Below are positions 12,160 through 60,086 of a stretch of 64,000 bases of DNA, in pieces. The notes beneath the pieces are model-generated. The model made no database searches. It had not been told where the DNA came from and was given only the letters and a program-made list of their open reading frames with translations. The position numbers and the translations under genes were made by a program. Each line of letters begins with the position of its first letter. Position 1 is the stretch's first letter. Location of the stretch: positions 124,265 to 188,264 of the forward strand of contig CAZKRD010000001.1 in the NCBI GenBank assembly GCA_964555185.1. The letters are read 5' to 3'. This DNA comes from an uncultured Candidatus Saccharibacteria bacterium. GTDB lineage: Bacteria; Patescibacteriota; JAQUNI01.

Positions 12160-12186
12160 AAATTTAAGACAAATATAATTTGATCC

Positions 12187-14621: not shown

Positions 14622-14632
14622 AAAATAATGGT

Positions 14633-15772: not shown

Positions 15773-15788
15773 TTTTGATACTAAAATT

Positions 15789-16205: not shown

Positions 16206-16334
16206 AGTTTAGTTTAAAATTCAAAATGCAAAGTTAAAAGTTGCAATTAGAAGTTTAAAGTTATGGAAAATAAGGAGTTGAAAGGACAGCTAGTTAGGTT
16301 CCTATATCTATCGCTACTTTAATAAATTTGATAA

Positions 16335-16395
16335 AGAAAAGAAAACTTTAAATTTTGGATTCAATTTTGAACTTTGAACTTTGAACTTTTAACTA
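16335..16395. repeat. Family-B 8-bp periodic repeat upstream of the VirB4 N-domain ORF
   Basis: 'ttcaattttgaactttgaactttgaacttttaact'. Confidence 0.65.
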
Positions 16396-16402
16396 TATAC
16401 CT

Positions 16403-17155
16403 ATGCCCCCCAAACAAAAACCTAAAAATAAAACTAATCCCAAGGAGAATAAGAAGTCCAAAGGCCGTTTTTTCAGTCTCCATTCCAAAAAGCTGACCGC
16501 GGGCAAGCCCAAGAAAACCACCCAGCAATTTTTGGATATTGTTGGGATCAGGGATAATACAGTGGTGCTTCGCGACGGCACTCTGCGCGCGATTATCATG
16601 GTTTCCAGTATGAATTTTTCTTTGAAGGGCCAAGAAGAGCAGAACTCCATTATCTATAGTTATCAAAGTCTTTTGAATGCTCTGAATTTTCCTATCCAGT
16701 TTGTGATTCAGTCTCGAGAATTGAATATTGAGTCCTATCTTAAAAATTTGGAAGAGCTAGAAGCAAAGCAAACGAATGAGCTTTTAAGGATTCAGACCAT
16801 AGAATACCGCGAGTACGTGAGCGAACTTGTTGAGTGGGGCCAGATTATGCGCAAACGTTTTTACATAGTCGTATCCTATGCTTTGGTGGAAGCCAAGGAA
16901 GAAAGTATGCTGTCCAAATTCAGAGCGATTGTGCGGCCGGCGGAGATTGTGCGGCAAAAGGAAAAAGACTTCTTAAGATACAAAAGTCTTTTGGATCAGA
17001 GAGTGGCGCGTATGGACGGTCTCCTAAATTCAATCGGCTTAAAGAGCGTACGTTTGAATACACAGGAATTAATTGAGCTGTTCTATAACGTCTACAATCC
17101 GTTTGTTTCTAGAACTCAGCCCTTAGCTGATGTTAAGAAACTTAATATTGTCTAG
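16403..17155 (+). CDS. VirB4/TraE-family N-terminal domain encoded as a separate ORF
   Basis: QFLDIVGIRDNTVVLRDGTLRAIIMVSSMNFSLKGQEEQNSIIYSYQSLLNALNFPIQFVIQS...RFYIVVSY matches the pattern of the extreme N-terminus of Gram-positive-type VirB4 proteins. Same frame as 17177..19117, separated by TAG (17153-5) and TAA (17159-61). Confidence 0.5.
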   Translation: MPPKQKPKNKTNPKENKKSKGRFFSLHSKKLTAGKPKKTTQQFLDIVGIRDNTVVLRDGTLRAIIMVSSMNFSLKGQEEQNSIIYSYQSLLNALNFPIQFVIQSRELNIESYLKNLEELEAKQTNELLRIQTIEYREYVSELVEWGQIMRKRFYIVVSYALVEAKEESMLSKFRAIVRPAEIVRQKEKDFLRYKSLLDQRVARMDGLLNSIGLKSVRLNTQELIELFYNVYNPFVSRTQPLADVKKLNIV

Positions 17156-17176
17156 CCCTAAATCAGAAATAAATCA

Positions 17177-19117: not shown

Positions 19118-19173
19118 TTAAAAGTAAAACCGTTGCCAAGGTAGGGTAGAAGTGGACTAATTCTACACTTACC

Positions 19174-19788
19174 TTGCCGGTGGTTAATAAAATTATGTTT
19201 TACAGCAATAAAAAAACAATCGTGATTTCCCTGATCCTTTGTTTGGGTCTAATCGTGATGACGGGCTTGGGCTGTAAGAGAAGCGGAGAAAAGGAAGATC
19301 TAGAGATCCTCGAACCTGAACTTGAAACTCCCTCTCTTGAAGCTCCGGTCCCGGGAACGCCTTCCCTGCCTACATCCGAGGTTCCAGGTTCAGAGAAAAC
19401 AAGCATCACCGAAAGAAAACTAAAGTCTTTGGCCGAGGATTTTGCCGCGGTTTGGGGCACTTATTCTTCGGAAAGCAATTGTCAGAATATTAGGGAGCTT
19501 CTGGATTATATGACCGCGGATTTTCGCGAGAATATGGAGGACTATCTTGAATATGAATGCACGGGAGAGATAGGAGGCGCTGACTTCACATGGGAGACAG
19601 AAGTTTTAGATAGTGTAATTTTAAATAACGACGTTACAGAGGCTGATATCCTGGTGGTGACCAGGCGCTGGAGAGATGGTGACTATGTGATAAGTTCTTA
19701 TTCTAATCTAATTCTGGATTTGAGAGTGGAAACAAACGCTCAAGGCGAGGATGAATGGAAGATTGATTATGCCTATTGGGCAGAGTGA
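19174..19788 (+). CDS. Hypothetical lipoprotein
   Basis: LILCLGLIVMTGLGCKRSGEKE (signal plus lipobox), followed by an acidic secreted domain. Confidence 0.55.
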   Translation: MPVVNKIMFYSNKKTIVISLILCLGLIVMTGLGCKRSGEKEDLEILEPELETPSLEAPVPGTPSLPTSEVPGSEKTSITERKLKSLAEDFAAVWGTYSSESNCQNIRELLDYMTADFRENMEDYLEYECTGEIGGADFTWETEVLDSVILNNDVTEADILVVTRRWRDGDYVISSYSNLILDLRVETNAQGEDEWKIDYAYWAE

Positions 19789-19794
19789 CTGATA

Positions 19795-19862
19795 ATTTAA
19801 AGTTCAAAGTTCAAAGTGACACTTCAAGTGTCATCCTGAAGGCGCTTTAGCGCCGAAGGATC
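19795..19862. terminator. Paired hairpins after the lipoprotein gene (family-B variant)
   Basis: 'aagttcaaagttcaaagtgacacttcaagtgtcat' + 'ggcgctttagcgcc'. Confidence 0.4.
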
Positions 19863-19910
19863 CCGTGAATATTCCTTGGGGCTCTTCATTATTCGTTTCA
19901 GGACAGAAGA

Positions 19911-20825
19911 TTGAATTTTGACTTTCGAAATATGGCCGCAAAACAAAGCAAAAAAGTAAAACCAGGAGATGAGGCTTCTTTCGATGTTAGACCTGGCCGT
20001 AAGAGTAAAAAGCCCGAGGAAGAGCTAGAGGCAATAGAGGGGGCGATAGAACTGACTCCATATGAAACCAAAACGGCAACTTTCAAGAAAGATAATATTA
20101 GAAGAAAAGGCAAAGCAAGACAGGAACAGGATTTTCAAGAACAATGGGAACAGCTGAAAGCGCAAAGGAGGATGATCCGGCCCCGAAGAACAGTCTCCAG
20201 AGGAGCAACAGAGTATGCTCGCCGTAAAAGAGAAAGAGAAGAAAGGACCAGGTTGAGAGAGAGAGGATACAAACCTTCTTTGGGACGGGAGATAGGGAAG
20301 GCGGGAGGAGAGAGACTTGGACAAACCGTTCCAGATGAAGAGGAAGAAAGGGAGGCGCCGCAAGAGCAAGAGGCGCAGAGAGAGCCGCAAAGAGAGGAAG
20401 AAAGGGAGACAAGAGAGGATCGTTTCCAAAAAGAGCTGCGTAAAAGAATGGGAGAGAGAGCAAAGGAGAAGGTCAAACAGAAGGTCAAACAGAAAGTGAA
20501 AGGACGGGCTAAACAGGAAGTAAAGAAAGTAGCGAAGAAAGCGGCCAAAGAAACAGCAAAGAAAGCAGCAAAAGCAGCAAGTAAGGCGCTTAAAAAGGCT
20601 GCCGCAGCAGCAATCAAAAAATTGGTTTCTCAAGTGATTGCTGGGATAGTTGCCCTTATTGGTGCGATCGGCTGGGTTGGCGTTCTCATTATTTTGGCTA
20701 TCTTAGTGATTATTATGGTTTTGGCCTATATCTATAGTTTTTGTAATGATAGCGCTCTAAATCATATTTTATGCAAGGTTTTGGGGTTTGGCGATGAACT
20801 CGATCAAATTATTCCCGCTAAATAA
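19911..20825 (+). CDS. Highly charged (K/E/R-rich) protein with C-terminal transmembrane anchor
   Basis: 304 aa. Repetitive charged region (KEKVKQKVKQKVKGRAKQEVKKVAKKAAKETAKKAAKAASKALKK), then IAGIVALIGAIGWVGVLIILAILVIIMVLAYIY. The overlapping minus-strand ORFs are low-complexity artefacts. Confidence 0.5.
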   Translation: MNFDFRNMAAKQSKKVKPGDEASFDVRPGRKSKKPEEELEAIEGAIELTPYETKTATFKKDNIRRKGKARQEQDFQEQWEQLKAQRRMIRPRRTVSRGATEYARRKREREERTRLRERGYKPSLGREIGKAGGERLGQTVPDEEEEREAPQEQEAQREPQREEERETREDRFQKELRKRMGERAKEKVKQKVKQKVKGRAKQEVKKVAKKAAKETAKKAAKAASKALKKAAAAAIKKLVSQVIAGIVALIGAIGWVGVLIILAILVIIMVLAYIYSFCNDSALNHILCKVLGFGDELDQIIPAK

Positions 20826-20837
20826 AGGAAGAGTATT

Positions 20838-22076
20838 ATGAAAAAAACTTTTTTTTTGATAGTTTGTTTAGCGCTTTTATTAGCCCCTGGAATTATTAGA
20901 GCAAGTGAGAATGATTGCCAGGGGACCTGGGTTAAGGTGCCAATCCCAATTGTTTTTGACCCAGAGATTAGAAGTCCAGGTGGTGGCGATGAAAAATTGA
21001 GCGTAATTACGCAAAATGGCCGCTGTATCCCCAACCCGGCGATTTTGATGTTTATGCTTTTTTACCTTGCTTTGGTTTTCATGGCTTTGGTCGCGATTTT
21101 TATGATCACGCTCGGCGGGTATAATTATCTTACTGCCTTTGGCAATGCCGAACGCGCCAAAGGGGGCAAGTCAATGATACTCGCCGCGATCGGCGGCTTG
21201 GTCGTAGGGCTTTTATCTTATGTGCTTTTGAATTTTATCAATCCGGATTTAACCAGTTTTGATTGGAGCACTAATAAGCTTAGTCAGGAAATAGGGAAAT
21301 CAATGGAAAAGATCGCGGAAGAAGAGAAGAAAGAGGAAAATTTATGCCCTAATAAAGCAGGGCCTTGTTATAAGAAGCCGATAGACGAAACTTGTGAAGT
21401 CAGTGGTGAAATTGGTTATTGTCGGATGAATGTTAATGTCAAAATGTGTACATGTGATGCTGATGAATGCGCTGATAACTGCGCTGGTGGTGATCTTAAG
21501 TGCGTAGGCAAGAAGTGTAAGGATGAGGATGAGGATGCTCAGATTTCTGATGGTCAGTGCCTGCTTAGTTCTGGATCTGCAATCTGCATGGACATTGAAG
21601 GTGCCTGTGGGAATGATTGCGGCGAAACCGGTAGCGCGTACTGGCAAGGTGATCTTAATTGTTGGGGAGGTTATGACTGCGATGTTGACGGGGTTTCCGG
21701 TCTTTGTTTAGGAGGCGATAGTTACAGCGGAGCAGGGAAGGAGTTATGTTTGTCTTGGGAAGATGTATGTGAGCAGGGTGAGTGTGGTGATAGTTATTCA
21801 GGCGAGACCGCCCAGAAAGTGGAAGATGAGTGTCATACGAATTATACATGTGATAATGAAAATGGAGCTTGTTTTAATGGCAGCTGTTGGCCGGGCTCTC
21901 CGTATGGGCTTGAGCCTTGCAGTAATGCTTGTGATGCTTGCCTCTATGACAGGGCAGGGAGTGGCCAGAAATTCGGGATATGTAAAGAGATTTATTCTGA
22001 TACCTTCCAATGCACATCTTACGAAGACGCTTTTCCATGTAGTGGTCTTCCTGATATTTCAGATCCAATAGATTAG
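20838..22076 (+). CDS. VirB2/TrbC-like double-TM N-terminal region fused to a ~240-aa domain with 37 cysteines
   Basis: Signal peptide (FFLIVCLALLLAPGIIRA). Two hydrophobic helices separated by a short polar loop (ILMFMLFYLALVFMALVAIFMITLGG-YNYLTAFGNAERAKGGKSM-ILAAIGGLVVGLLSYVLLNFINP), which is pilin-like topology. The C-terminal region has 37 Cys (CTCDADECADNCAGGDLKCVGKKCKDEDED...). Confidence 0.45.
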   Translation: MKKTFFLIVCLALLLAPGIIRASENDCQGTWVKVPIPIVFDPEIRSPGGGDEKLSVITQNGRCIPNPAILMFMLFYLALVFMALVAIFMITLGGYNYLTAFGNAERAKGGKSMILAAIGGLVVGLLSYVLLNFINPDLTSFDWSTNKLSQEIGKSMEKIAEEEKKEENLCPNKAGPCYKKPIDETCEVSGEIGYCRMNVNVKMCTCDADECADNCAGGDLKCVGKKCKDEDEDAQISDGQCLLSSGSAICMDIEGACGNDCGETGSAYWQGDLNCWGGYDCDVDGVSGLCLGGDSYSGAGKELCLSWEDVCEQGECGDSYSGETAQKVEDECHTNYTCDNENGACFNGSCWPGSPYGLEPCSNACDACLYDRAGSGQKFGICKEIYSDTFQCTSYEDAFPCSGLPDISDPID

Positions 22077-22084
22077 TTCTTATT

Positions 22085-22215
22085 TTGTACTTCAACTTTT
22101 AACTTGTATTTTTGCCTGCCCGCCGAAGCCTTGGCGTAGACGGGCCTGCCCACAACGCTTCACTTGCGAGGCGGGTGGGAGATTTAACTTTTAACTTTGC
22201 ACTTTTAACTTTTAA
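22085..22215. repeat. Family-B repeat (GC hairpin plus AACTTTTAACTTT periodic tract) between the Cys-rich pilin-like gene and the PD40 gene
   Basis: 'acttcaacttttaacttg...gcctgcccgccgaagccttggcgtagacgggcctgccc...gcgaggcgggtgggagatttaacttttaactttgcacttttaacttttaacttttc'. Confidence 0.7.
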
Positions 22216-32731: not shown

Positions 32732-32881
32732 AAATCCGTTTCAAAAATTCGCTTCGCGGATTTCCGTCTCGGCAAAAAATTTTGTTAAGATAAAATTGTT
32801 TAAAAGCAATTTTGGAAATTTCAAAAATCTTTTGATATTTCTTTCCAAATTTCATTTTTCGTAAACAAAAATATCACCACT

Positions 32882-34177
32882 TCAAAAATTGACTTTTGGG
32901 GGATTGCTCAAAATGATTTTGGGTAAACTCGGCATATATTTTCGTAAAACCTCTGGAACTTTTACGCTTCCATCCTCCTGTTGGTTATTTTCAATTATTG
33001 AAATTAAAAGTCTAGGTACGGCAAAAGCTGTTCCGTTTACAGTATGAACAAAGTTTAATTTACCCAATCTGTTTCTACAGCGAATATTTAATCTTCTTGC
33101 TTGAAAATCAGTACAATTTGAAGTTGAATGGGTCTCACGATATCTATTTTGAGATGGTATCCATGTTTCGATATCATATTGGCTAGCCGTAGGCAATGCC
33201 ATATCTCCACTACATATTTTAATTACACGATAAGGAAGTTTTAATGCTTCCATTAACTTTTCTTCTATTTCTAGAAATAACCAGTGCTCTTTTTTTGAAT
33301 CCTCCGGTTTGCAAAAGCTAAACATCTCAATTTTATCAAATTGGTGAACCCTAAAAATCCCTCTTGTATCTTTTCCATAAGAGCCACTTTCTCTGCGAAA
33401 ACAAGTGGAAAAACCTAAATATCTCTTAGGAAGTTCTTCATTATCAAAAACCTCGTTGGAGTGCATTGCACCTATAGAATGTTCTGCTGTGGCCACTAAA
33501 TATAAATCATCTTGAGGTAGATAATATGCCTCCTCTTTACCAGAATGTTCTAAATATCCCATTCCTCTTTCCATTTCTGATTTTAACATTGCCGGTGGAA
33601 TAATTGGAATAAATTTAAATTCTTTAATTAAAATATCATAAGCCAATTTTATTAAAGCAAATTCCAATAAAACTGCTTCCTTCTTCAAAAAACTAAATCT
33701 TGTCCCAGAAATCTTTGCTGCTCTTTTAACATCAATTATGTCTAATTTTTCACCAATCTCTAAATGGTCTTTTGGTTTGAAATCAAATTTTGGCCTCTCT
33801 CCCACCTCTCTTAAAACTACATTCTCTCTCTCATTTTTTCCTATTGGAACATCCTCTTGAGGTAAATTTGGGACTTGAAGTATTAAGTTATTAATTTTTT
33901 TTTCAAGAATTTTTAGAGTTTTATTTAATCTATCACTGTTTTTATCTAATTCTCTCATTTCTAAGATTATTTTTTGTTTTTCTTTCTCATCTTTTATTTC
34001 GGAAATTTTTTTTGAAGCTTTATTTTTTTGAGCCCGCGTGTCTTCCAAGGTTGGAATTATTTTCCGTCTTTTTTTATCAAATTCTAAAAGTTGATCAATA
34101 TCAACCATAACCTGCTTCTGTTGACAAGCACTTTTTACTTTATCGAGATTCTGACAAATAAATCTAATATCTAACAT
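32882..34177 (-). CDS. serS: Seryl-tRNA synthetase (bacterial type, class II)
   Basis: N-terminal coiled coil. Class II motifs FRRESGSYGKDTRGIFRVHQFDKIE, TSNCTDFQARRL, GTAFAVPRLLISIIENNQ. 431 aa. Confidence 0.9.
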   Translation of the reverse strand: MLDIRFICQNLDKVKSACQQKQVMVDIDQLLEFDKKRRKIIPTLEDTRAQKNKASKKISEIKDEKEKQKIILEMRELDKNSDRLNKTLKILEKKINNLILQVPNLPQEDVPIGKNERENVVLREVGERPKFDFKPKDHLEIGEKLDIIDVKRAAKISGTRFSFLKKEAVLLEFALIKLAYDILIKEFKFIPIIPPAMLKSEMERGMGYLEHSGKEEAYYLPQDDLYLVATAEHSIGAMHSNEVFDNEELPKRYLGFSTCFRRESGSYGKDTRGIFRVHQFDKIEMFSFCKPEDSKKEHWLFLEIEEKLMEALKLPYRVIKICSGDMALPTASQYDIETWIPSQNRYRETHSTSNCTDFQARRLNIRCRNRLGKLNFVHTVNGTAFAVPRLLISIIENNQQEDGSVKVPEVLRKYMPSLPKIILSNPPKVNF

Positions 34178-34243
34178 AAATTAATAATAACAAAAATAAT
34201 GAAATAAGAGTAGTCCCCTTAATTATTTGTCATTGTTGTATTT

Positions 34244-35248
34244 TTAGGAATAAAATTTTTCTTTTATATACTTAGGTAGTATTCCAAATCTCCAAAAATC
34301 ATAATATTTTTGCTTATGACAAAAACCGGTATAATTTCTGTTTAATTTTTCTAAAACTATTTCTTTCATTAATTTCTTTCTTTCTTTTAGGGTTTTATTC
34401 CTAAAATCCCTCACGTATTCTAATCTAATAGCACAATTAGACACAAGTCCTTCTGGGTTCACACGAATTTTTGTACATTTTTCTCGGTCACAACGATAAT
34501 TTGCAGAATAATTTGGGTTAACTCCGTATATTCCTTTTAATCCAGAAATTCGAAAATATAAGGATTTAGGGACATTTCCTTTATTCTCAAGGGGAATTAA
34601 ATCTCCGTATTTTTTAAGACAGTTTAATATTTCATATATCGAAACAAAATTTTTCTCAAAAATTGTAATATCTTCATCATATATCTGACCACAAGGAACA
34701 AGTTCTAAAAATCTAACTGTTAATTTTCCCTGAAATTCTTCAGTAAATTTAACAAAATCATCAATCGTACTAAAATTATTTTTAGTTATAACACAATTAA
34801 TTTTAGTATTACTGTATAATTCTGTGGCTTTTTTTATAGAGTCTATAACATAGTTGAATCCGTCAACGCCACAAATATTTTTATATTGATTTCTATCTAA
34901 AATATCTAAACTCAAATTCACCCTTGTAATGCCAGCTTCTTTTAATTTATCAGCCATTTTATAATATAAGATTCCATTTGTCGTTAGGTGCTGTTGTCTA
35001 ACGCCTAAAGCTTTCACATTTTTAACAAGGTTTATAAATCCTTCTCTAACCGTCGGTTCCCCACCAGTCCATATTACTCTTTTAATTTCTGTCGAAGCCC
35101 CCGCTTCTACAATTTTTAATAGATCTTTATCAGATAATATATTGGGGTTAGGATTCCTTTTGGGGTTACAATAATTACAATTTAGATTGCAAGCGCTAGT
35201 CGCAGAAATCCTTAACGTATAGTTATTCTGTAGTTTAGTTTTATTCAC
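34244..35248 (-). CDS. Radical SAM enzyme, MoaA-like (GTP 3',8-cyclase family fold)
   Basis: LRISATSACNLNCNYC (CxxxCxxC), WTGGEPTVR, HLTTNGILY, RVNLSLDILD, FLELVPCG. The collinear MoaA signature. Confidence 0.8.
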   Translation of the reverse strand: MNKTKLQNNYTLRISATSACNLNCNYCNPKRNPNPNILSDKDLLKIVEAGASTEIKRVIWTGGEPTVREGFINLVKNVKALGVRQQHLTTNGILYYKMADKLKEAGITRVNLSLDILDRNQYKNICGVDGFNYVIDSIKKATELYSNTKINCVITKNNFSTIDDFVKFTEEFQGKLTVRFLELVPCGQIYDEDITIFEKNFVSIYEILNCLKKYGDLIPLENKGNVPKSLYFRISGLKGIYGVNPNYSANYRCDREKCTKIRVNPEGLVSNCAIRLEYVRDFRNKTLKERKKLMKEIVLEKLNRNYTGFCHKQKYYDFWRFGILPKYIKEKFYS

Positions 35249-35264
35249 AAATAGTCTTAAGTGA

Positions 35265-36470
35265 TCAAAATTTATTATTAAGAATCATATTAGTGAATTT
35301 TGTATAATTTGAATCCGGCACCATCCAAAAAAGATTCTCAAATTCCTTTAAAATAATTAATCGAATGGTTTCTTTGTTTTCTTCGTTCATTTCCTTACAA
35401 GTATTAATGCTCACGATTTCCGGCATACTGATTGGATTACCCAGTCGGCTTAATATACTAACTTCTACTGATAATTTATTATTAAATCTCTTAGCTATCT
35501 TTTTAGCTAAATAAAAGGCTAACAAATTATATAATTTCCCAGTATTATAGACTGGATTTTTTCCATAAATCACCTCAAAACTTGTTGGCCTGTAAAAACT
35601 AATTAGCCCCGACACTCTATTTCCTCGGCCGACAGAACCTTTATCATGCTCTGCTGCTGTTCCTGTTAATGTTAAATAAACTTTTTTTTCTTTTTTATTG
35701 TCTGCAGCGTTAATAACTAGTTCAACTTGCTGCTTAATTTTCTTTCTAACTAAAGCTAATAGTTTTTCTTTAATTTTTTCTTTCAGTAAAAAATATTCAT
35801 TTATATTCTTTATTTTCTCCCCTAAAAAAGCGATGCTGATAATAATCTGAATTTTCCTTTCGCTATCTTTTTTTACTACCATCACCTTTGTATCTTTACC
35901 GATTGGAAATTCTTTTATTAATTTTTGGGAAAGATTTTTCTCAATATCTAATGTTAAATTTTCTACTAATGTATATGGATAAAAACCAATTCCAATAGCA
36001 GTGTCTTCGGAGATTGGTAACTCTCTGCTTTCAAAAAACTTCTTATTTCTTATAGAATATATTCCAATATTAGATTTTATCTTAAAGACCCTTAAAATTT
36101 TATTGTTAAAAATACTAGTAAGTAATTTTTTAGTTGAGCTAACAGCTATTTTATTGATTTTTTTACATTCTTCTTGTGAAATACAAGAGGCTTTTCCGGA
36201 TATTGTAATCTCTCCTGGCTTTATAATTTGACCTTTGCCAAAATTAATTTTGATTTCTCCACCATTTATTTCAACTTGGTCAACATTGAAACGATATATA
36301 GCTCTATATTTATTCTTGTAATAATTACAAATATTTCGGCAGGTGAATTCGGCAATTTGGTCCGCCAAAGAATCAGGGTGACCTATTCCTTTCTTTTCTA
36401 CAATCTCGATTTTCTTTTGAGATAAAGATGAACTTACGGTATTTATAATAATATCAAATGGATACTCCAT
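35265..36470 (-). CDS. S-adenosylmethionine synthetase, archaeal type (MAT)
   Basis: VEKKGIGHPDSLADQIAE...RFNVDQVEINGG resembles the archaeal MAT N-terminus (ERKG-GHPDS-CD-IAE...NTDQVEL-GG). ~400 aa. Confidence 0.75.
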   Translation of the reverse strand: MEYPFDIIINTVSSSLSQKKIEIVEKKGIGHPDSLADQIAEFTCRNICNYYKNKYRAIYRFNVDQVEINGGEIKINFGKGQIIKPGEITISGKASCISQEECKKINKIAVSSTKKLLTSIFNNKILRVFKIKSNIGIYSIRNKKFFESRELPISEDTAIGIGFYPYTLVENLTLDIEKNLSQKLIKEFPIGKDTKVMVVKKDSERKIQIIISIAFLGEKIKNINEYFLLKEKIKEKLLALVRKKIKQQVELVINAADNKKEKKVYLTLTGTAAEHDKGSVGRGNRVSGLISFYRPTSFEVIYGKNPVYNTGKLYNLLAFYLAKKIAKRFNNKLSVEVSILSRLGNPISMPEIVSINTCKEMNEENKETIRLIILKEFENLFWMVPDSNYTKFTNMILNNKF

Positions 36471-36475
36471 AAAAT

Positions 36476-37351
36476 TTAACCTAAAAACTCATTATAAATT
36501 CTCTCGAAGTCCTGAATTAAATAGGCTGATTTTTTTAATCTTGATATACTATGAGCATCACTACCAATTGAAATTTTATTTCCGCCCATTTTTATATACT
36601 CATTAATTATACCCACAGAAGGATAAGTTTCACCCGTATCTTTAATCCCAGATAGATTAATCTCTAAACCAATGTTATTTTTTATTAACTCTCTCAAAAT
36701 AGGTCGTATATATATTATAGCTTTATCAAAATGATAATTCTTAAATTTTTTCTTTAAAAAGTCTAGGTGAGCAATATAATTAAACATCCCCGATTTTATT
36801 GCGGATAAAATATTTTCAAAATATGCCGAATATAATTTTTGCTCGCCATATTTATTAATGAATGGCTGTAATTGATTTATAAAACCTACGTGTATATATC
36901 TGTTTGATTCTGGTAATGCCGAACCGCAAACATAGTGACAACTTCCTAAAATAATATCTATTTTATATTTTGTAATACACTCTTTGATTTCATCTTCGTA
37001 TTCTGTAAAATAATCTACTTCTAATCCCTTTAATATTCTTACTCGAAATTTTTCTTGCAATACCTCTATATGTTTAAAATAAGTTTTTAAATCTATTGTT
37101 TTCCTACCATCTTTAGGGATTAAACTTTCTTCGGGAAATAAGGTATCATGATCTTTCTCACTAATTGGTTTAGGATACTTTATTAATGGCCAAATAAAGT
37201 GTTCAGTAATTGCTATTTCCTTAAATCCAATATTCTCAGCCGCAGCTATTATTGATTCCAAATCATCTTTTGTATGATCCAGAAATCCAGAATGTATATG
37301 ATAATCCTTCTTCATGGATTTTATTATAAATAATAATCTCCCAAAAGTCAA
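36476..37351 (-). CDS. PHP-family metal-dependent phosphoesterase (histidinol-phosphatase-like)
   Basis: DYHIHSGF (start), ITEHF, ...SDAHS. The likely true start is ATG at MKKDYHIHS (~37315). Confidence 0.7.
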   Translation of the reverse strand: MTFGRLLFIIKSMKKDYHIHSGFLDHTKDDLESIIAAAENIGFKEIAITEHFIWPLIKYPKPISEKDHDTLFPEESLIPKDGRKTIDLKTYFKHIEVLQEKFRVRILKGLEVDYFTEYEDEIKECITKYKIDIILGSCHYVCGSALPESNRYIHVGFINQLQPFINKYGEQKLYSAYFENILSAIKSGMFNYIAHLDFLKKKFKNYHFDKAIIYIRPILRELIKNNIGLEINLSGIKDTGETYPSVGIINEYIKMGGNKISIGSDAHSISRLKKSAYLIQDFERIYNEFLG

Positions 37352-37384
37352 TTTTTGAAGTGGTGATATTTTTGTTTACGAAAA

Positions 37385-38650
37385 ATGAAATTTGGAAAGA
37401 AATATCAAAAGTTTTTTCTCTATGCGAGAAAATCAACGGACACGGAAGAAAGGCAAATTCGAAGTCTTGACGACCAAATAGCTGAATTGAAAGAACTTGC
37501 GAAAAAGGAAAATATAGAAATCGTGAAAATTTTCATTGAAAAACAAACTGCCAAAGAGCCGGGCAGACCAATTTTTAACGAAATGTTATCTCGTATAGAG
37601 AAGAATGAAGCTGAAGGAATTTTAACGTGGCATCCAGATCGCCTTGCCAGAAATTCTGTTGACGGCGGAAAAATAATTTGGCTTTTGGATATTGAAAAAC
37701 TAAAAGAGCTAAAATTCCCGACTTTTTGGTTTGAAAATACGCCGCCGGGAAAATTTATGCTTCAGATTGCCTTCGGCCAGTCAAAATACTATATTGATAA
37801 TCTTTCGGAAAATATCAAAAGAGGAATAAGGCAGAAATTAAAAAACGGGCTTTGGCCGCAAATGGCCCCGCTTGGATATTTGAACGACAAAAACACAAAA
37901 TCAATCGTTGTTGATCAAAATAAAACCCGCTTCATCAAAAAATCTTTTGAATTGTATTCAACCGGAAAATTTTCCCTGCGGCGCTTGTGCGAGACAATCA
38001 ATAATCTGGGATTGATCGGAAGAAAAAATAAAATGTTGAGTATCTCAAATTACCAATATTTTCTCAAAAACCCGTTTTATTGCGGACTAATCAGATATAA
38101 CGGGGAATTATACGAAGGAAAACACGAACCAATTATTGCAAAGAAACTTTTTGATAAAACGCAGGAAATAATGAAAGGGAAAAGCAAACCGAACAAGAAG
38201 AAGTTAAAGTATTTTGTTTTTCGCGGGTTTATCCGTTGCGGGGAGTGTGGTTGTTTAATTACCGCCGAGAATCAAAAAGGGCATAATTATTACCATTGCA
38301 CCAAACGAAAAACAAAATGCTTTCAAAAATATGTCCGCGAGGAAAATTTAACAAAACAAATAAACGAGCATATTCAAAAAGTTTCTTTGCCTGATGACTG
38401 GGCAAACAATATACTTGCCGAGATAGACAAAGAAAAAGAGCAAGCGAGAGAAGAAACGAAAGTTTTTATTCAAAATCTCCAAACTCAAAAAGTGGAAATT
38501 GAAAGCAAGGCCGAGAACCTGCTTGATTTGTTTATCGGTGGCAAAGGCATTGAGCCAGAAGAATACCAAGCAAAAAAACAAAAACTGCTTAACAAGAAGC
38601 AGGATATTTTAGGAAAAATAAAAATGATTGAAAAAAAAGGCAATACTTAG
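37385..38650 (+). CDS. Large serine recombinase / integrase
   Basis: Resolvase catalytic domain (FFLYARKSTD..QIRSLDDQ...HPDRLARN), recombinase domain, and Zn ribbon (FIRCGECGCLITAENQKGHNYYHCTKRKTKC). 421 aa. Confidence 0.85.
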   Translation: MKFGKKYQKFFLYARKSTDTEERQIRSLDDQIAELKELAKKENIEIVKIFIEKQTAKEPGRPIFNEMLSRIEKNEAEGILTWHPDRLARNSVDGGKIIWLLDIEKLKELKFPTFWFENTPPGKFMLQIAFGQSKYYIDNLSENIKRGIRQKLKNGLWPQMAPLGYLNDKNTKSIVVDQNKTRFIKKSFELYSTGKFSLRRLCETINNLGLIGRKNKMLSISNYQYFLKNPFYCGLIRYNGELYEGKHEPIIAKKLFDKTQEIMKGKSKPNKKKLKYFVFRGFIRCGECGCLITAENQKGHNYYHCTKRKTKCFQKYVREENLTKQINEHIQKVSLPDDWANNILAEIDKEKEQAREETKVFIQNLQTQKVEIESKAENLLDLFIGGKGIEPEEYQAKKQKLLNKKQDILGKIKMIEKKGNT

Positions 38651-38848: not shown

Positions 38849-38939
38849 TGGCGGTGGGTGCAGGATTCGAACCTGCGGTCCCCAAAAAGGAGACTCTGGT
38901 TTTCAAAACCAGTGCATTCGACCACTCTGCCAACCCACC
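38849..38939 (-). tRNA. tRNA-Ser (anticodon TGA), with encoded CCA
   Basis: RC reads GGTGGGTTGGCAGAGTGGTCGAATGCACTGGTTTTGAAAACCAGAGTCTCCTTTTTGGGGACCGCAGGTTCGAATCCTGCACCCACCGCCA. Long variable arm, anticodon loop TTTGAAA. Confidence 0.85.
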
Positions 38940-42156: not shown

Positions 42157-42491
42157 AGTTTTAATTTGGACAATCGGTAGATTTATTGTATAATAAAGTT
42201 GTGTTTTTAGCAACAGAGTGCGATTGAGATCTTCGACTTTTTAATTGTTTTGGATTTTGGCTTGCTGTTTTAGGTTTTTCAGGTGTCCACACACTAATGT
42301 TGTCAAGATATTGCTGTTTGTGTTAAAATTAAGTCAGATCTTGAGCTTATTATTTCAGGGATTTGTTAAATAAATACAAACACTGATTTTAAATTTAAAA
42401 CTCTAATCTCTAGCTTTGCTGGTGTTATTTGAGATTTGGGATTTTTTGCGACTTATCTAAAATACAAACCAAACAGCAAGGGAGTATAAAT

Positions 42492-42570
42492 TGGGGTCCC
42501 CGCAAAATCGAAGTTTTTGTGGGGTATAATATAAACTGAGGTCCCCGCAAAATCGAAGTTTTTGTGGGGT
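42492..42570. promoter_or_regulatory. Two tandem copies of a ~33-bp imperfect palindrome, overlapping a TATAAT box, upstream of pilM
   Basis: 'ggtccccgcaaaatcgaagtttttgtggggtaTAATataaactgag' + 'gtccccgcaaaatcgaagtttttgtggggtaaaaaaatgg'. Each unit is ccccgcaaaa...tttttgtgggg. Confidence 0.35.
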
Positions 42571-43662
42571 AAAAAAATGGGATCATTCGGCAAAAAGTTT
42601 AAAGGAAGATGTCTTGGCGTAGATATTGGCACCTCCAACTTAAAGGTGATTGAATTGAACAGTCTGGCCGGCCAGCCGAATTTGGCAACTTATGGATCAA
42701 TCGGTGTAGGATATGATCTGATCAGGAGTGAGTCAAAGGAAGTGCAGGAAAAGATATTTAAAAGTTTAAAAAAAATCATTAAGGAAAGCGGAGTGAAAAG
42801 TGTCCGTGCGATTGCTTCCTTGCCGGGCTTCTCGGTTTTTACTACGGTTTTGAATTTGCCGAAGATGAAGGAGAAAGAGCTGGCGTCAGCGATTAAATGG
42901 GAGGCGAAACGTTATATTCCTTTTCCAATTGAGGAGATAATTTTAGACTGGGAAATTTTGGGGAGCAAGAATGTGCCGATAGACCTTGCTGACGGGCAGA
43001 TAGCAGAGAGCAAGGAGGAATTAGAAGTGTTTTTGACGGCCGTGCCTAAAAATATTGTCGGGAGGTACAGTGACATTTTTAAAAGTGCTGATTTGAAATT
43101 GATCGGCCTTGAGCCTGAAGCAATGGCGCTGAGCCGCGCTTTGGTCGGAAGAGCAAAGGGGCGGGCAATGATTGTGGATCTTGGCGCCACGGCTACAGAG
43201 ATTTGTATTGTTGAGGATGGGCACCCTAAACTTAATTTGAGTGTGGACACAGGGGGCAACGCTTTAACCAAAGCGATCGCCCAGAGTCTCCAGGTTTCTT
43301 TTAACCGCGCAGAGCAGTTTAAAAGAGACTTCGGTGTTTCCAGAAGAAAGTTGGGCGGCGAGATACCTCGAGCGATCAGGCCAGTGATCGACATTATTGT
43401 CGAGAAGATCCAACATTGTTTAGGTCTTTTTTACAACCGCGGGGGAGGAAAAATTTCTAGGATCATTCTTTCGGGAGGTTCGGCCAGACTGCCGGAATTT
43501 GTCAGCTATTTATCTTTATTTCTAAAAGAGGAGAAGATAGAGATTTCTAATCCTTGGCAGTATGTTCTTTACCCCAAGGAATTGGATCGGGTCTTGCAGG
43601 AATTGGGTCCTGGTTTTGATGTGGCTGTTGGTTTAGCCTTGAGTGAGTTTATAGTCAGATGA
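42562..43662 (+). CDS. pilM: Type IV pilus assembly protein PilM (actin-like ATPase)
   Basis: CLGVDIGTSNLKVIEL..., ...ILSGGSARLPEF. Conserved position upstream of pilB. Confidence 0.85.
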   Translation: MWGKKMGSFGKKFKGRCLGVDIGTSNLKVIELNSLAGQPNLATYGSIGVGYDLIRSESKEVQEKIFKSLKKIIKESGVKSVRAIASLPGFSVFTTVLNLPKMKEKELASAIKWEAKRYIPFPIEEIILDWEILGSKNVPIDLADGQIAESKEELEVFLTAVPKNIVGRYSDIFKSADLKLIGLEPEAMALSRALVGRAKGRAMIVDLGATATEICIVEDGHPKLNLSVDTGGNALTKAIAQSLQVSFNRAEQFKRDFGVSRRKLGGEIPRAIRPVIDIIVEKIQHCLGLFYNRGGGKISRIILSGGSARLPEFVSYLSLFLKEEKIEISNPWQYVLYPKELDRVLQELGPGFDVAVGLALSEFIVR

Positions 43663-55297: not shown

Positions 55298-56095
55298 ATG
55301 AAATTAAAAAATAAAGAGAGCTGTTCTTCAAAAAAAAGCAGACTTTACGGCGCGGTGCCCTGGATTGTTTTACTTATCATCGCTCTAATTGTTGTCGGCG
55401 GCTTGGTGGCAGTTTATTACCTTTGGCCAAAAGAAGCCCCAGAAGCCGTTCCAGGCGAACAGGAAGTTAAGTCTTATGTCGGCACGATAACAGAGTTAGG
55501 CAAAGACAGCTTTAAACTTCAAGTAAAAGCAGAGAGGAATTATCTTAATGAAGACAGCGAGTTTATGGTCGAAGTTGATAAAGACACGCAGTATTCCAAA
55601 ACAGTAATGCCTGTGTCTGTTCCGGAAGAGGATACGGGAAGTTCGGTCCAGATTACACCTGCCGTGTTCTCTGATCTTAAAGTAGGTGATGAGGTTGTGG
55701 TTGCGAGCAATTCTGATATTGCCGGCAAGAGCAAATTCACGGCCGTCAGAGTTGAAATTCTGGATGTAACAGAGATCAAGTCTTATACGGGAAAAGTTAA
55801 ATCCATAGGCAATGAACAGATGGAGATTACTGCAGGAGCGCAACAAAACTATTTTAATGTGGATACGGTTTTGATTGTAAAAACAGACCCCAAAACAGAG
55901 TATTTCCAGATTTATTTTTCTAAAAATGTTTCTACTTCTGAAAACCTTGAGGGACAATTGGAAAGAGAGAAGATTAGTTTTGAAGATATAAAAGTAGGGG
56001 ATGATGTAGTTGTCGCAAGCAACCAGGACCTCAAAGGCCAAACCACCTTCTTCGCCCGAGAGATTTCAATCTTACCCAAATCAATTCAAGAATAG
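55298..56095 (+). CDS. Membrane-anchored protein with three internal ~70-aa repeats
   Basis: TM (IVLLIIALIVVGGLVAVYYLW). Repeats KSYVGTITELGKDSFKLQV.../KSYTGKVKSIGNEQMEITA.../IKVGDDVVVAS. Confidence 0.5.
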   Translation: MKLKNKESCSSKKSRLYGAVPWIVLLIIALIVVGGLVAVYYLWPKEAPEAVPGEQEVKSYVGTITELGKDSFKLQVKAERNYLNEDSEFMVEVDKDTQYSKTVMPVSVPEEDTGSSVQITPAVFSDLKVGDEVVVASNSDIAGKSKFTAVRVEILDVTEIKSYTGKVKSIGNEQMEITAGAQQNYFNVDTVLIVKTDPKTEYFQIYFSKNVSTSENLEGQLEREKISFEDIKVGDDVVVASNQDLKGQTTFFAREISILPKSIQE

Positions 56096-56258
56096 ATTTG
56101 TAGGGCCTGTCCGCCGAAGCTCGTGAGCGAAGGCGGAGCGACTCCATGCCCGCGAACCTTAAAAAACAAATAATAAAAAAAGACCACAGCAGTAAAGACA
56201 AATTGTTTCAAGTCTCTTGTGTGGTCGTGGTAAAAGAGCTGAAAGAACTATTAGGAGG

Positions 56259-56990
56259 CTATAGGAGACCCGCCCTTCTCTTTATTCCTCCCCATACAAC
56301 CGCTTTCTTGAGAGGCCGCGGTGGTGCAAGTCGGCTTTTTATTACTAAATCTAGAATATCCACGCGCCCGTCACCATTCAGGTCATCATCTTCTTCTTTT
56401 TGGTCCTGATGGCCGTTTAGAGTGATGACAATATCTCTAATATCTATTATCCCGTCATCATTAACATCTTCTAGAACATCTTCTAGTGTGGGTTTGTCGC
56501 CGACCCTTAGTTGCTTTCTGGTTTTCGCAGGAATGGTGCTTGACGGTTGTGTGGATACAGCATCTTCACAATTACCCGATCGTAGTTCACCGCAAAGGCG
56601 GTATATCGGGTATTCTGTACCGTTGATTTCAGTAGTTCCACAGTCAGTATCTTCTATCCAGAATGGTCCTAGACATACGGGTATTTCTACAGGTTCACCA
56701 TTACAAAAGAATATCATGCTGTTGTTAGACTGCTCATTAAAGCGTTCTTCTGTCCACCAAGCTTCTACTTCTTCTGTCCATGTAATTCGTAGACACGCCC
56801 TTGCACCTGACCACTCACAATTAAGAATATCGTCTTCTGTTAAGCAGTCGCCACATTGACTTCTGATAACATCAGCAGTGGTGATCAGGTCATCGCAGAT
56901 TTCTTGTCCGTCTTCAGCGGAGCTTAGGGTTAGAGGGTAAACCAAGATCATGATTGATATCATCATCAGGACATAACTTTTTTCTTTCAT
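56259..56990 (-). CDS. Secreted Cys-rich protein with C-terminal dockerin-like calcium-binding repeats
   Basis: Signal peptide. The N-terminal domain is shared with 57340..59457. DVNDDGIIDIRDIV...DLNGDGRVDILDLV matches the dockerin type-I repeat pattern. Confidence 0.6.
   Translation of the reverse strand: MKEKSYVLMMISIMILVYPLTLSSAEDGQEICDDLITTADVIRSQCGDCLTEDDILNCEWSGARACLRITWTEEVEAWWTEERFNEQSNNSMIFFCNGEPVEIPVCLGPFWIEDTDCGTTEINGTEYPIYRLCGELRSGNCEDAVSTQPSSTIPAKTRKQLRVGDKPTLEDVLEDVNDDGIIDIRDIVITLNGHQDQKEEDDDLNGDGRVDILDLVIKSRLAPPRPLKKAVVWGGIKRRAGLL
56545..56850. repeat. Left arm of an inverted duplication (core 195 bp, 100% identical to the reverse complement of 57537..57732)
   Basis: The RC of 56605..56800 equals 'cgaattacatggacagaagaagtagaagcttggtggacagaagaacgctttaatgagcag...aatacccgatata' in gene 57340..59457. 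Confidence 0.85.
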
Positions 56991-57339
56991 TTTTTATACC
57001 TCCTCAGATTAGAAAGGAACTGATTTTCATAACAGCTTTCAATAATCAAATCTCCATTTTGATATATTAACATATTAAGAAAATGATGTCAAATTTTTTT
57101 AAGTATATCAATTGTTGAGAACTTTGATTTGGCATGAAGATAAAATATAGTTAGTCTCATTGGGTTATTTTAGAAAAGATGTGTTCTGAAAATTAAATTT
57201 TGGAGCACTAGTTGTACTCAAAGAAAAGAGCGTAAGATTTTAATACAAGGGAGGTAAGTATGACTTTTTAAAACTATTGAAACTGAAATTCATTTGTTGT
57301 TTGTAGAATATATTTATATAAAATAAAACAAAAAAGTAT

Positions 57340-59457
57340 ATGTTAGCAAAAAAAAATTTATTTTGGATTTCTATTTTAATGCTGAATTTATGGTTAATTG
57401 GTGGTTTTTCAGTGAGAGAGGCGCAGGGAGTTTGTGATGATCCAGTCACTACTACCGAGGGAATCATAAGTCAATGTGGCGAATGCTCATCAGAAGGGGA
57501 TATTCTTAATTGTGAGTGGTCAGGCGAAAGAACATGTCTACGAATTACATGGACAGAAGAAGTAGAAGCTTGGTGGACAGAAGAACGCTTTAATGAGCAG
57601 TCTAACAACAGCATGATATTCTTTTGTAATGGTGAACCTGTAGAAATACCCGTATGTCTAGGACCATTCTGGATAGAAGATACTGACTGTGGAACTACTG
57701 AAATCAACGGTACAGAATACCCGATATACCACCTTTGCGGTGAACTACAATCGGGTAGTTGTGATGAAGGGGAACCTGGATCCACCTCCTGTTCCGTAGG
57801 ATATTGCCAAGAATTATGGCCGGGGACAGAGTATGCTGCTTGCAGTGAGACCACTGGGTGGGGTGATTATAGCTGTGGTCCGGACCGAGAGTATTATGGC
57901 GCGCGTGATACGGATGATTGTAACACAGATCCTGACAACTATTGCGTCTGTTGCGGAGATCCAGGCAGTAAATCACCCTCTTGTGATCTATCAGCCAATC
58001 CTGATAATGGTTTTGATCCTTTAAGTACTAATCTTAGCATGTCAGCTGAAGGGTCTAGTCTTGACAGCTGGCAATTAACTTATGGGGATGGAGCACAGGA
58101 ATGCAATCCTGGCCCTTGTTCTGGCAACCCTGATGGATTAACCCGCAATCATATTTACAATACAGGGGATTATACTGCAACAATGACCCTTTGGAATCAA
58201 GCAGGGGAGAGCGCTACTTGTGTTGATGATATTGAGGTTGGTATTGGAATACCCCAAAATCTGCACCACACAGCCAATACTCCTTATACTCTTGGTTGGG
58301 CTTGGGATCCTGTGGGTGGAGCGACTTCTTACAAGGCTTATGTTTATGATGGTATTGGTATCGGCGGTGCTTACTGGCTGCTTGGTACTGTTACAGAAAC
58401 CGAGTTTAGCCATTCTCAATATCCAGTATTTTTATTCTTTTTTCTTCTTTGGCTTCCAATTGGCGGTAATGGCATACCCTGGAATTGGCCTTATACGGTT
58501 GGCGTGTTAGCTTGTAATGGCGCTGTCTGTTCTCCGCCCGCTACTGCGACAGCAGCTACCTCAATCGAGTCCCCAACATTGATTACTAAAGTCGGCGAAA
58601 CTTTAAACGGTACGAACAGCAGTTTTACAATCAGAGTAGATTCTAATGAACGCTGGGGACTTGGTTTTTCCGCGTTAAATCAGGGTAATTCAGCTGTCAG
58701 AACAAGAATTAGAAGACTGCCTAGCGGCTTTCCAGAACAGACCATTGATTGGCGCAGTGGTCCTGGCCTTTATGGCCGGCCAGCAGACTTTGTTTTCTCC
58801 GGCCTCCTAGAAGGCAGTGAATATGAGGTCTGCGCTCAATCGAGGAATCGTGACGGGATTGCTGATGGTGTTGGCGATTATCGGCCCGGCCCGACTGCTT
58901 CAGATTGGAACTGTGAGAACATCTCTGTTGGTACTCTAGTTGTTTCTTGCACGCCAGACACAGATCAAGCCTGCTGTGAGAATCCACTGGCAAATGTAGA
59001 TTTAACAGCGACTAAGGGATTAGCTCCTGGCCTAATCTGTACAGGCGCGACTGGCAATACCTGCTGGGCTCCTGCGGGCGGGTTTGTTTTTCCTCCTGGT
59101 ATTCCTCAAGGTGGAGAGATGTATCAGTCTAACTGCTGTGGCGATGATTTAGGCGAGGCTTTTGACGGTGGCAATGTATCATGCGACGGCACCCATGCCT
59201 GTTGTCCTTTTGGTCTTTATGTTGAAGGCGGGAATTGTGTTAGTGATTGTTCTGTGAATCAACCTCCAGATCCGCCGATTATAGAGCCGCCGATTTCTTT
59301 TGAGGGCAGTATTGCTCCGAGTAAGACAGGCATTCATACAGCAAGCCAGTACGGCTCAAAGAAAGACACGGCTTTGAGTAAAAAGAAGACAAACTTTCTC
59401 GCCAAGCTTTCGGCTAATTTGTTTGATTTGATTATTCATAATATTTTTAAGAAGTAG
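57340..59457 (+). CDS. Large secreted Cys-rich protein (705 aa) with Ig/PKD/Fn3-like segments
   Basis: Signal peptide (LFWISILMLNLWLIGGFSV), shared N-terminal domain, many Cys, a PKD-like stretch (LSANPDNGFDPLSTNLSMSAEGS...YGDGA). Confidence 0.65.
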   Translation: MLAKKNLFWISILMLNLWLIGGFSVREAQGVCDDPVTTTEGIISQCGECSSEGDILNCEWSGERTCLRITWTEEVEAWWTEERFNEQSNNSMIFFCNGEPVEIPVCLGPFWIEDTDCGTTEINGTEYPIYHLCGELQSGSCDEGEPGSTSCSVGYCQELWPGTEYAACSETTGWGDYSCGPDREYYGARDTDDCNTDPDNYCVCCGDPGSKSPSCDLSANPDNGFDPLSTNLSMSAEGSSLDSWQLTYGDGAQECNPGPCSGNPDGLTRNHIYNTGDYTATMTLWNQAGESATCVDDIEVGIGIPQNLHHTANTPYTLGWAWDPVGGATSYKAYVYDGIGIGGAYWLLGTVTETEFSHSQYPVFLFFFLLWLPIGGNGIPWNWPYTVGVLACNGAVCSPPATATAATSIESPTLITKVGETLNGTNSSFTIRVDSNERWGLGFSALNQGNSAVRTRIRRLPSGFPEQTIDWRSGPGLYGRPADFVFSGLLEGSEYEVCAQSRNRDGIADGVGDYRPGPTASDWNCENISVGTLVVSCTPDTDQACCENPLANVDLTATKGLAPGLICTGATGNTCWAPAGGFVFPPGIPQGGEMYQSNCCGDDLGEAFDGGNVSCDGTHACCPFGLYVEGGNCVSDCSVNQPPDPPIIEPPISFEGSIAPSKTGIHTASQYGSKKDTALSKKKTNFLAKLSANLFDLIIHNIFKK
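57480..57790. repeat. Right arm of the inverted duplication
   Basis: See 56545..56850. Confidence 0.85.
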
Positions 59458-59469
59458 AAATTCAGAGTG

Positions 59470-59548
59470 CTCGGTTAAAATTTCAACTTTTAACTTTAAA
59501 CTTTGCCTGCCTGCCGGAGCCTTGGCGTAGGTAGGAATTTTGAACTTG
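59470..59548. repeat. Family-B repeat (AACTTTTAACTTTAAACTTT plus GC hairpin)
   Basis: 'aaatttcaacttttaactttaaactttgcctgcctgccggagccttggcgtaggtagg'. Confidence 0.65.
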
Positions 59549-59549
59549 A

Positions 59550-60086
59550 TTGATGTCTTCAAAAATCCTTTGGCTAGTTTTAATCGTTGCTGTTATTATT
59601 CTCGGAATCACGATCTACTTTGCCCACTTTTTTGAGATAGAAATAGAAAATACAGAGTTGCCAAAAAGAGGGGATCTTGATTTGTCGAGTGACACTTTGC
59701 CTGTACCGGACAATATCATTCCTCCTTCCCCTGATTATAATCCAGGGGGAGATGATAGTCCGGATGATCCTGGAGATGATCCTGGAGTAGAAAATCTTAA
59801 GATGAAGATAGTAAGTTATCGCGGCTTTATTACTAAGATAGGATCTTCTTCAATTGAGTTTGAACCAAGAGTAGAGGGAGGGTCGGAAAAGCTGGTTACT
59901 GCTTTTGTTGATGCTAATACTGAAATCACACAAGTGTTTCTTTCCGAAGAGACAGTAGAGGAATCAATTGAACTTTCCGATTTAAGGGTTGGCGATGAAG
60001 TAAGAGTGAATGGGTTAGCCCAAAATTATTTTGAGCCGATCCCGCATACTATTCAAATAGAAAGATTTTATTTAAGAAAAAAATGA
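59550..60086 (+). CDS. Membrane-anchored protein with Pro/Asp-rich linker
   Basis: TM (ILWLVLIVAVIILGITIYFAHFF). PPSPDYNPGGDDSPDDPGDDPG. Confidence 0.5.
   Translation: MMSSKILWLVLIVAVIILGITIYFAHFFEIEIENTELPKRGDLDLSSDTLPVPDNIIPPSPDYNPGGDDSPDDPGDDPGVENLKMKIVSYRGFITKIGSSSIEFEPRVEGGSEKLVTAFVDANTEITQVFLSEETVEESIELSDLRVGDEVRVNGLAQNYFEPIPHTIQIERFYLRKK

Follow-up and report, generated by a model that had tools for sequence, protein, structure and literature searches.

An identical inverted repeat within two divergent genes for putative surface proteins of an uncultured Saccharibacteria bacterium, and its probable homogenisation by recent gene conversion

How two neighbouring genes that otherwise differ come to share a segment identical to the last base is the question raised by a locus in the genome of an uncultured Candidatus Saccharibacteria bacterium (assembly GCA_964555185.1, contig CAZKRD010000001.1). 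The window analysed is the 64,000-nt stretch at positions 124,265–188,264 of the forward strand of this contig, and coordinates below are those of the window. Towards its right end lie two divergently transcribed genes, here called A and B, each containing one arm of a perfect inverted repeat near its 5′ end. Judged from the distribution of differences along the two copies, the genes are probably old inverted paralogues whose centre has recently been homogenised by homologous recombination or gene conversion.

Identical inverted arms in genes A and B

The genes, the arms of the repeat and the segment between them are as follows.

56259–56990, minus strand: gene A, 243 aa; an open reading frame (ORF) for which the same gene is called in the source scaffold
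57340–59457, plus strand: gene B, 705 aa; an ORF for which the public gene call begins at M14 (57379) and gives 692 aa
56600–56795, minus strand: left perfect arm, 196 nt, in gene A, delimited by a base-by-base walk
57535–57730, plus strand: right perfect arm, 196 nt, in gene B, delimited by a base-by-base walk
56563–56913, minus strand: extended arm of homology in gene A, 351 nt, with 91% identity to its counterpart in gene B
57417–57767, plus strand: extended homologous arm in gene B, 351 nt, 91% complementary; 503 nt separate the extended arms
56796–57534: segment between the perfect arms, 739 nt; the two 5′ gene ends (66 codons each) and a 349-nt intergenic region, 25% GC

A preliminary description of the window had reported a perfect inverted repeat between two divergent secreted-protein genes, and this is confirmed both by a repeat search and by a base-by-base walk. 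Positions 56600–56795 are the exact reverse complement of 57535–57730, forming a perfect run of 196 nt with a spacer of 739 nt; the coordinates reported earlier (56605–56800 and 57537–57732) exceed these by 5 and 2 nt, and the stated 195 bp falls one base short. The left arm spans codons 67–130 of gene A together with the third base of codon 66 and bases 1 and 2 of codon 131, and the right arm covers the same codons in gene B. Both proteins were said to contain the same segment, and they do so at an equal residue offset: a common 64-aa peptide (LRITW...YPIY) begins at residue 67 (0-based index 66) of each. A 50-nt probe from the core matches only two places in the 64-kb window, which are the two arms.

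Homology extends beyond the core for 118 nt with 28 mismatches on the inner (N-terminal) side and for 37 nt with 5 mismatches on the outer side. Past both flanks it ends, and the signal-peptide regions of A and B are not alignable. A miniature inverted-repeat transposable element or in-frame mobile insertion was rejected, since homology runs on to the left and right of the perfect run, and its length of 196 nt is not divisible by three.

The distribution of the differences departs strongly from chance. When the 33 mismatches in the 351 aligned nt are placed at random, a run of at least 196 nt is found in 0 of 200,000 placements (the largest is 122 nt), and an analytic approximation gives 7e-11. 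Comparison of synonymous divergence inside and outside the repeat, a check proposed in the preliminary description, was made with the Nei-Gojobori method. The inner flank (codons 29–66) has a dS of 0.78, a dN of 0.18 and an omega of 0.23, and A and B are therefore interpreted as an old duplicate under purifying selection, whereas the core has no differences at either its 38.7 synonymous or its 153 non-synonymous sites. The flanks have a pS of 0.35 (dS 0.48), and at this rate the probability of finding no synonymous differences in the core is 4.5e-8; protein-level constraint is therefore unable to explain the identity.

The resulting mosaic of an old inner flank, a core with zero divergence and a slightly diverged outer flank points to an old inverted duplication whose centre was recently overwritten. 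An intragenomic duplication in inverted orientation would have given A and B the same orphan Cys-rich module (inner flank dS ~0.8), and homologous recombination between these inverted copies would very recently have erased all differences in the central 196 nt. The tract would then represent a non-reciprocal gene conversion of at least 196 nt, presumably through RecA-type strand exchange with mismatch repair of the heteroduplex. Two causes had been put forward earlier, ongoing gene conversion or an invertible segment. A recent conversion is borne out by the comparison of the core (0 of ~39 synonymous sites) with the flank (dS 0.78) and by a run beyond chance; the invertible segment fares less well, as set out below.

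The shared module and a gene B orthologue

The gene A product has a signal-peptide-like N-terminus, the Cys-rich module (approximately residues 29–143), a linker, two dockerin-like Ca-loop repeats and a basic tail. The two repeats visible in the sequence (DVNDDGIIDIRD and DLNGDGRVDILD) have loops of the DxNxDGxxDxxD type, and the match to Pfam Dockerin_1 (17.1 bits, E 0.0063) is below the gathering score (cut-off 22.9); dockerin-like is the most that can be said of this C-terminus. The gene B product begins with a signal-peptide-like N-terminus and the Cys-rich module in common with A, followed by a Cys-rich body that includes PKD-like and fn3-like regions, and then by an amphipathic tail at the C-terminus. 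The earlier account of a dockerin-like end in A and a Cys-rich multi-domain protein in B is accurate at this level, with PKD and fn3 as well as dockerin matches sub-threshold, and neither gene matches any family above cut-off in Pfam or NCBIfam. AlphaFold2 applied to gene A with no alignment gave a pLDDT of 53, and Foldseek against PDB returned nothing below E 0.08.

The A/B pair is situated directly downstream of a type IV pilus cluster encoding a PilM-like protein, two T2SSE ATPases, T2SSF, a prepilin peptidase, a PilO-like protein and several N_methyl pilins, and a DUF11-repeat protein is encoded just downstream of the pair. Genes A and B likely code for secreted or surface proteins with an adhesin or surface role, and the host appears to be a small-genome, possibly episymbiotic marine bacterium. 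The genes that flank the pair, at 55298–56095 (265 aa) and 59550–60086 (178 aa), are both on the plus strand and are distant paralogues (E 2e-05); their products have in common a repeated domain with the ending L(K/R)VGD(E/D)V(V/R)V.

An exhaustive phmmer search with the 119-aa module against 1.84 billion representative proteins found only gene A (E 2e-62), together with two further weak matches of which neither is homologous to the whole module. One of these is a eukaryotic GTPase repeat and was judged to be chance; the other, a 26-aa VCDDGLATTENILN repeat, resembles the first 20 module residues only, and both were set aside. Scans of genome, metagenome and viral contigs revealed no relatives of the module, and tblastn found just the two copies within the ~70 kb of scaffold examined. 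Protein searching gave no homologue of gene A besides itself, and it forms a singleton cluster. Negatives of the word-index protein search are weak because it missed A from B and B from A, although both are in the collection and have 64 identical consecutive residues.

Gene B has one orthologue, on JGI contig Ga0114923_10030045 (hereafter L002; protein P0003), which is 72% identical from 'TSCSV' to the C-terminus, the body only; apart from two marginal fragments, the searches gave no further orthologues of this body. The L002 gene (ORF 1059–3194, 711 aa) begins with a different Cys-rich N-terminal module whose similarity to that of gene B is undetectable (local score 39 vs 37 ± 6.7 for shuffles). 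The two loci are syntenic, since the 178-aa gene downstream of gene B is 81% identical to its counterpart in L002; upstream of the L002 gene there is a WD40-like gene instead of a gene A homologue.

Orthology at the DNA level between gene B and L002 begins at ~57782, ~15 nt after the A/B homology ends at 57767, and the outer end of the repeat thus matches a junction of modules that varies between related genomes. On this comparison the N-terminal module behaves as an exchangeable head cassette, in that L002 carries an unrelated module and the breakpoint falls where the A/B homology stops. The lack of an orthologue of gene A in these searches and the non-homologous module at the repeat position in L002 are compatible with intragenomic exchange. 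With respect to the ancestral orientation, the 5′ untranslated region and signal-peptide DNA of L002 were compared with those of A and of B, and neither comparison was significant.

Alternatives to the proposed recent conversion

The intergenic region between A and B contains the following candidate expression signals.

57064–57092, minus strand: promoter-like site facing gene A (TTGACA—17 bp—TAATAT, with TG upstream of the second hexamer; 10/12, a consensus match only)
57124–57151, plus strand: weaker promoter-like site facing gene B (TTGATT—16 bp—TATAGT; 9/12, a consensus match only)
56999–57003, minus strand: GGAGG Shine-Dalgarno (SD)-like motif, with 8 nt from its last G to the start of gene A downstream
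57249–57271, plus strand: GGGAGG followed by a 3-codon mini-ORF (ATG ACT TTT TAA) that ends 68 nt upstream of the gene B start, as read from the sequence

Promoter-like hexamers point both ways, and their number in the region equals the shuffle expectation. Among the 30 starts inspected in the window gene A alone has a full GGAGG, with four others having a 4-nt core (AGGA or GAGG); GGAGG occurs 119 times in the 64 kb, and the gene A motif could be chance. Gene B is without an SD motif. The genome appears to be largely SD-less, yet the A/B intergenic region has two strong motifs, the GGAGG of gene A and the GGGAGG of the mini-ORF.

Inverting 56796–57534 in silico keeps both frames, yields intact chimeras of 705 and 243 aa, and exchanges the promoters, the signal peptides and the first 66 codons of A and B. 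The geometry in the preliminary description, in which inversion between the arms swaps promoters and signal peptides, is therefore correct. The perfect core offers a competent substrate for a reciprocal crossover that would flip the 739-bp segment; such an inversion is plausible, as a possible by-product and not as a demonstrated function. Two features elsewhere in the window also bear on inversion.

37385–38650 (–39061): large serine recombinase with Resolvase, Recombinase and Zn_ribbon domains, next to tRNA-Ser(tga) at 38849–38939
32823–32905 and 37335–37417: second inverted repeat, 83 nt with 2 mismatches, bracketing a 4.4-kb block (32906–37334)

A homology-driven inversion switch resembling that of Campylobacter fetus sap would account for the same arrangement. 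Crossovers in the core would repeatedly flip the 739-bp promoter and leader segment, such that the better signals (the near-consensus promoter and GGAGG, now on A) alternate between the short dockerin-tailed and the long multidomain protein, with repeated heteroduplex repair keeping the core identical. The genes are divergent and separated by a short intergenic distance (349 nt), the repeat is 5′-proximal at an equal codon offset (codon 67), and the predicted chimeras are intact. The signals look asymmetric, A having the 10/12 promoter-like site and the sole full GGAGG of 30 starts and B neither, and both proteins are of a surface type and encoded beside a pilus cluster, a typical target of phase variation. 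Three of four attributes of validated gene-altering inversions are present, namely a long repeat, a short distance between coding sequences (CDSs) and orientation matching (Milman et al. 2023, PMC9881135). However, the attribute that is the strongest predictor in that study, an 'asymmetry' in which the partner CDS is truncated and promoter-less (silent), is absent, no recombinase adjoins the locus, and the promoter-like sites face both ways at chance frequency. The SD-less state of gene B also counts against a switch, because the L002 orthologue is likewise without an SD motif and this is thus the normal state of the gene. After a swap the mature N-termini would differ from the present proteins at only ~17 residues beyond the signal peptide, and the 707-kb scaffold continues across the repeat, which hints that one orientation predominates. 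Neither chimera (the M14-start version included) is present in a collection of ~15 billion proteins, although the evidence is weak, given that both A and B are singletons in that collection and the organism has been sampled essentially once. On balance a switch of this type is unlikely. A site-specific inverton or shufflon, in which a dedicated invertase flips the segment via sites within the repeat, is very improbable. The preliminary description had seen no invertase in the window, which is incorrect in that the large serine recombinase at 37385 is present, and some known invertible regions have no nearby recombinase gene (PMC9881135); both points favour this explanation. Nonetheless, the search for a nearby invertase that had been recommended found none adjoining the A/B locus among Pfam-annotated gene calls. 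A distance of 18 kb separates the serine recombinase, which abuts a tRNA-Ser gene, from the locus, and no other recombinase is found in the gene calls (window 4633–64000) or in ORF 751–1827. The 5′ end of the serine recombinase gene sits in the separate 83-nt inverted repeat flanking the low-GC 4.4-kb block, and a link to genes A and B was rejected because this repeat has no similarity to the 196-nt repeat (score 18 vs 15.5 ± 1.9 for shuffles). A perfect 196-nt core with graded flanks is furthermore unlike the product of short recombinase sites.

The remaining explanations concern the identity itself. The source is a short-read metagenome (ENA ERZ23486238, scaffold BAEC19-1_SAMN10404973_METAG-scaffold_1, 706,972 bp; BioSample SAMN10404973 appears in a preprint re-analysing marine metagenomes). 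In a de Bruijn graph an inverted repeat becomes one node, both orientations of the middle are valid paths, and bubble-popping may merge near-identical copies. The paralogues might then be real and their perfect identity, or the orientation of the middle segment, made by graph simplification or arbitrary repeat resolution. Independent Logan assemblies of raw runs from the same study are identical in sequence to the window, and their contigs break at the 196-nt repeat and at the other inverted repeat of the window (83 nt) and, like the scaffold, give one A/B orientation or none. The breaks and the short-read source fit an assembly effect, and the middle-segment orientation may reflect a majority choice by the assembler. 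As an account of the identity, however, such an effect is improbable. Both ORFs are intact and in frame through the repeat while their flanks differ, and a contig from a second metagenome, independent of this one, is syntenic on the gene B side. Logan contig L011 (run SRR8482198) begins at window position 57701 and is mismatch-free against the window from there on; this start lies k−1 = 30 nt inside the outer core edge, where a k=31 graph should break if the repeat boundary is genuine. Bubble-popping may drop a few single-nucleotide polymorphisms, but not the 25–40 differences expected at flank-like divergence. Purifying selection at the nucleotide level, on an RNA or DNA element embedded in both copies, would fit an identity that reaches all synonymous sites and has next to no likelihood. 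The core folds no better than shuffled sequence (z = −0.66), and Rfam identifies three tRNAs in the window and no family matching the core, such that a nucleotide-level functional element is not supported; the core sequence is also found nowhere else in the collections searched, with no sign of conservation beyond the A/B pair.

A recent conversion between old paralogues has several points to contend with as well. It is drawn from one consensus sequence, and the pattern would look the same after a single conversion as after repeated recombination with inversions among the events. In the 13 codons of the outer flank, 5 changes are non-synonymous and 0 synonymous, which a simple two-age model does not predict, although the numbers are small. 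Only RadA-like and RecG genes were seen in the window, and recA was not. Bubble-popping could have erased a few real differences between the copies, in which case the identity would be very high and not perfect.

Other window features, related systems and significance

Several further repeats and gene clusters are present in the window. The public call for the serine recombinase (558 aa) reads through an in-frame stop at 38648–38650 into the tRNA region, and the right arm of the 83-nt repeat corresponds to the upstream (promoter) region and first 11 codons of this gene. The bracketed 4.4-kb block has a GC content of 29–31% vs ~43% and contains four minus-strand genes, coding for a seryl-tRNA synthetase, a radical SAM protein, an archaeal-type AdoMet synthase (PF01941) and a PHP-domain protein. 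Logan contig L007 covers exactly 32871–37369, and the block may be an invertible or mobile cassette.

A GC-rich intergenic element (...GCCTGCCCGCCGAAGCCTTGGCGTAG...) recurs after several genes (22091–22139, 59482–59530 and ~56105–56140), and Logan contig L013 ends at 56132, inside a similar GC-rich element downstream of the 265-aa gene; this distribution suggests a dispersed REP-like repeat. Immediately upstream of the first pilus-cluster gene (PilM-like, at 42562) are two tandem copies of a 45-nt unit (42485–42574) that are 93% identical, each with a short hairpin (GGGGTCCCCGCAAAATCGAAGTTTTTGTGGGG). A conjugation or type IV secretion-like cluster at 8788–22076 encodes PrgI, a TraC-like protein, a VirB4/TraG-type ATPase and a T4SS-pilin-like protein. 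Two orphan proteins of very large size (1976 aa and 1123 aa) are encoded ahead of it, and there is internal paralogy (11149–11894 vs 13635–14395, 73–78% identical). At the left of the window a direct repeat of 300 nt (344–643 and 1857–2156, 96% identical) flanks ORF 751–1827 (minus strand, 358 aa), which has only a sub-threshold DUF3108-like match, and a 44-nt repeat pair is located at 254–297 and 1765–1808.

The closest known process appears to be the concerted evolution of paralogous surface-protein genes by gene conversion. In Helicobacter pylori, babA and babB are surface-protein genes that undergo conversion between paralogues. As in that pair, A and B are paralogues with an identical 5′ stretch that would be kept so by homologous recombination while the rest differs, and the identical tract is sharply bounded with mosaic divergence around it. 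They differ in that the copies are adjacent and inverted rather than dispersed, the module common to both is an orphan, the organism is marine, uncultivated and has a small genome, and chimeric alleles have not been seen.

Among known machines, the A/B geometry comes closest to the C. fetus sap inversion system. As reportedly described by Dworkin and Blaser in the 1990s, a recA-dependent inversion takes place there between the conserved 5′ regions of S-layer cassettes that lie in opposite orientation on the two sides of a promoter. The conserved region is said to be ~600 bp long and to start upstream of the start codon, with a single promoter and several silent cassettes. The likeness lies in divergent surface-protein genes with an identical 5′-proximal segment, a promoter-bearing segment between them, no need for a dedicated invertase, and the reassignment of expression signals that an inversion would bring. 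In contrast to sap, the A/B identical tract measures 196 nt and starts from codon 67; the two genes come with separate starts and signal peptides, there are promoter-like sites in either direction, and no inversion has been observed.

A further point of comparison is the class of gene-altering programmed inversions, also termed 'partial intergenic invertons' or shufflons (Milman et al. 2023, PMC9881135; Chanin et al., preprint 10.1101/2023.03.11.532203). The A/B locus has inverted repeats inside opposed CDSs that lie a short way apart and are oriented so as to bring the repeats near each other. It differs from these systems in having neither an adjacent recombinase nor a truncated partner, both genes having their own start codon and signal-peptide-like N-terminus, and both orientations have not been seen. 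Two near-identical repeats of 100–200 nt, one of them inside a surface-protein gene, also recall a diversity-generating retroelement (DGR). A template and variable repeat pair was rejected, since the mismatch spectrum is symmetric and without adenine bias (adenine in 9 vs 10 of the 33 mismatches) and the window gene calls include no reverse transcriptase domain; both A/B copies are moreover coding and N-terminal. On the features tested the locus is outside the recombinase-driven inverton and shufflon class, and it is not a DGR.

The kind of event proposed here is known; what is new in detail is the particular module, the organism, and the fact that the repeat edge falls together with a module-swap junction. 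If no more than a single conversion took place, the locus would be a case of ordinary concerted evolution between neighbouring paralogues. It is also a concrete candidate for recombinase-independent phase variation. There is some limited chance that it is a homology-driven flip-switch that works without a recombinase in a small-genome, probably host-dependent marine bacterium, with continual recombination keeping the core identical, and this would represent sap-like phase variation in a lineage without a documented case; the head domain affected would be one that is swapped among related organisms as well. If the recent conversion is correct, surface genes adjacent to a pilus cluster in a tiny-genome uncultivated bacterium would exchange an N-terminal head module by homologous recombination, both inside one genome, as seen in the identical core, and on an evolutionary time scale, as seen in the different head of the orthologue. 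Such variation is expected at an interface of contact with a host or with phages, and the orphan module would be a candidate binding domain.

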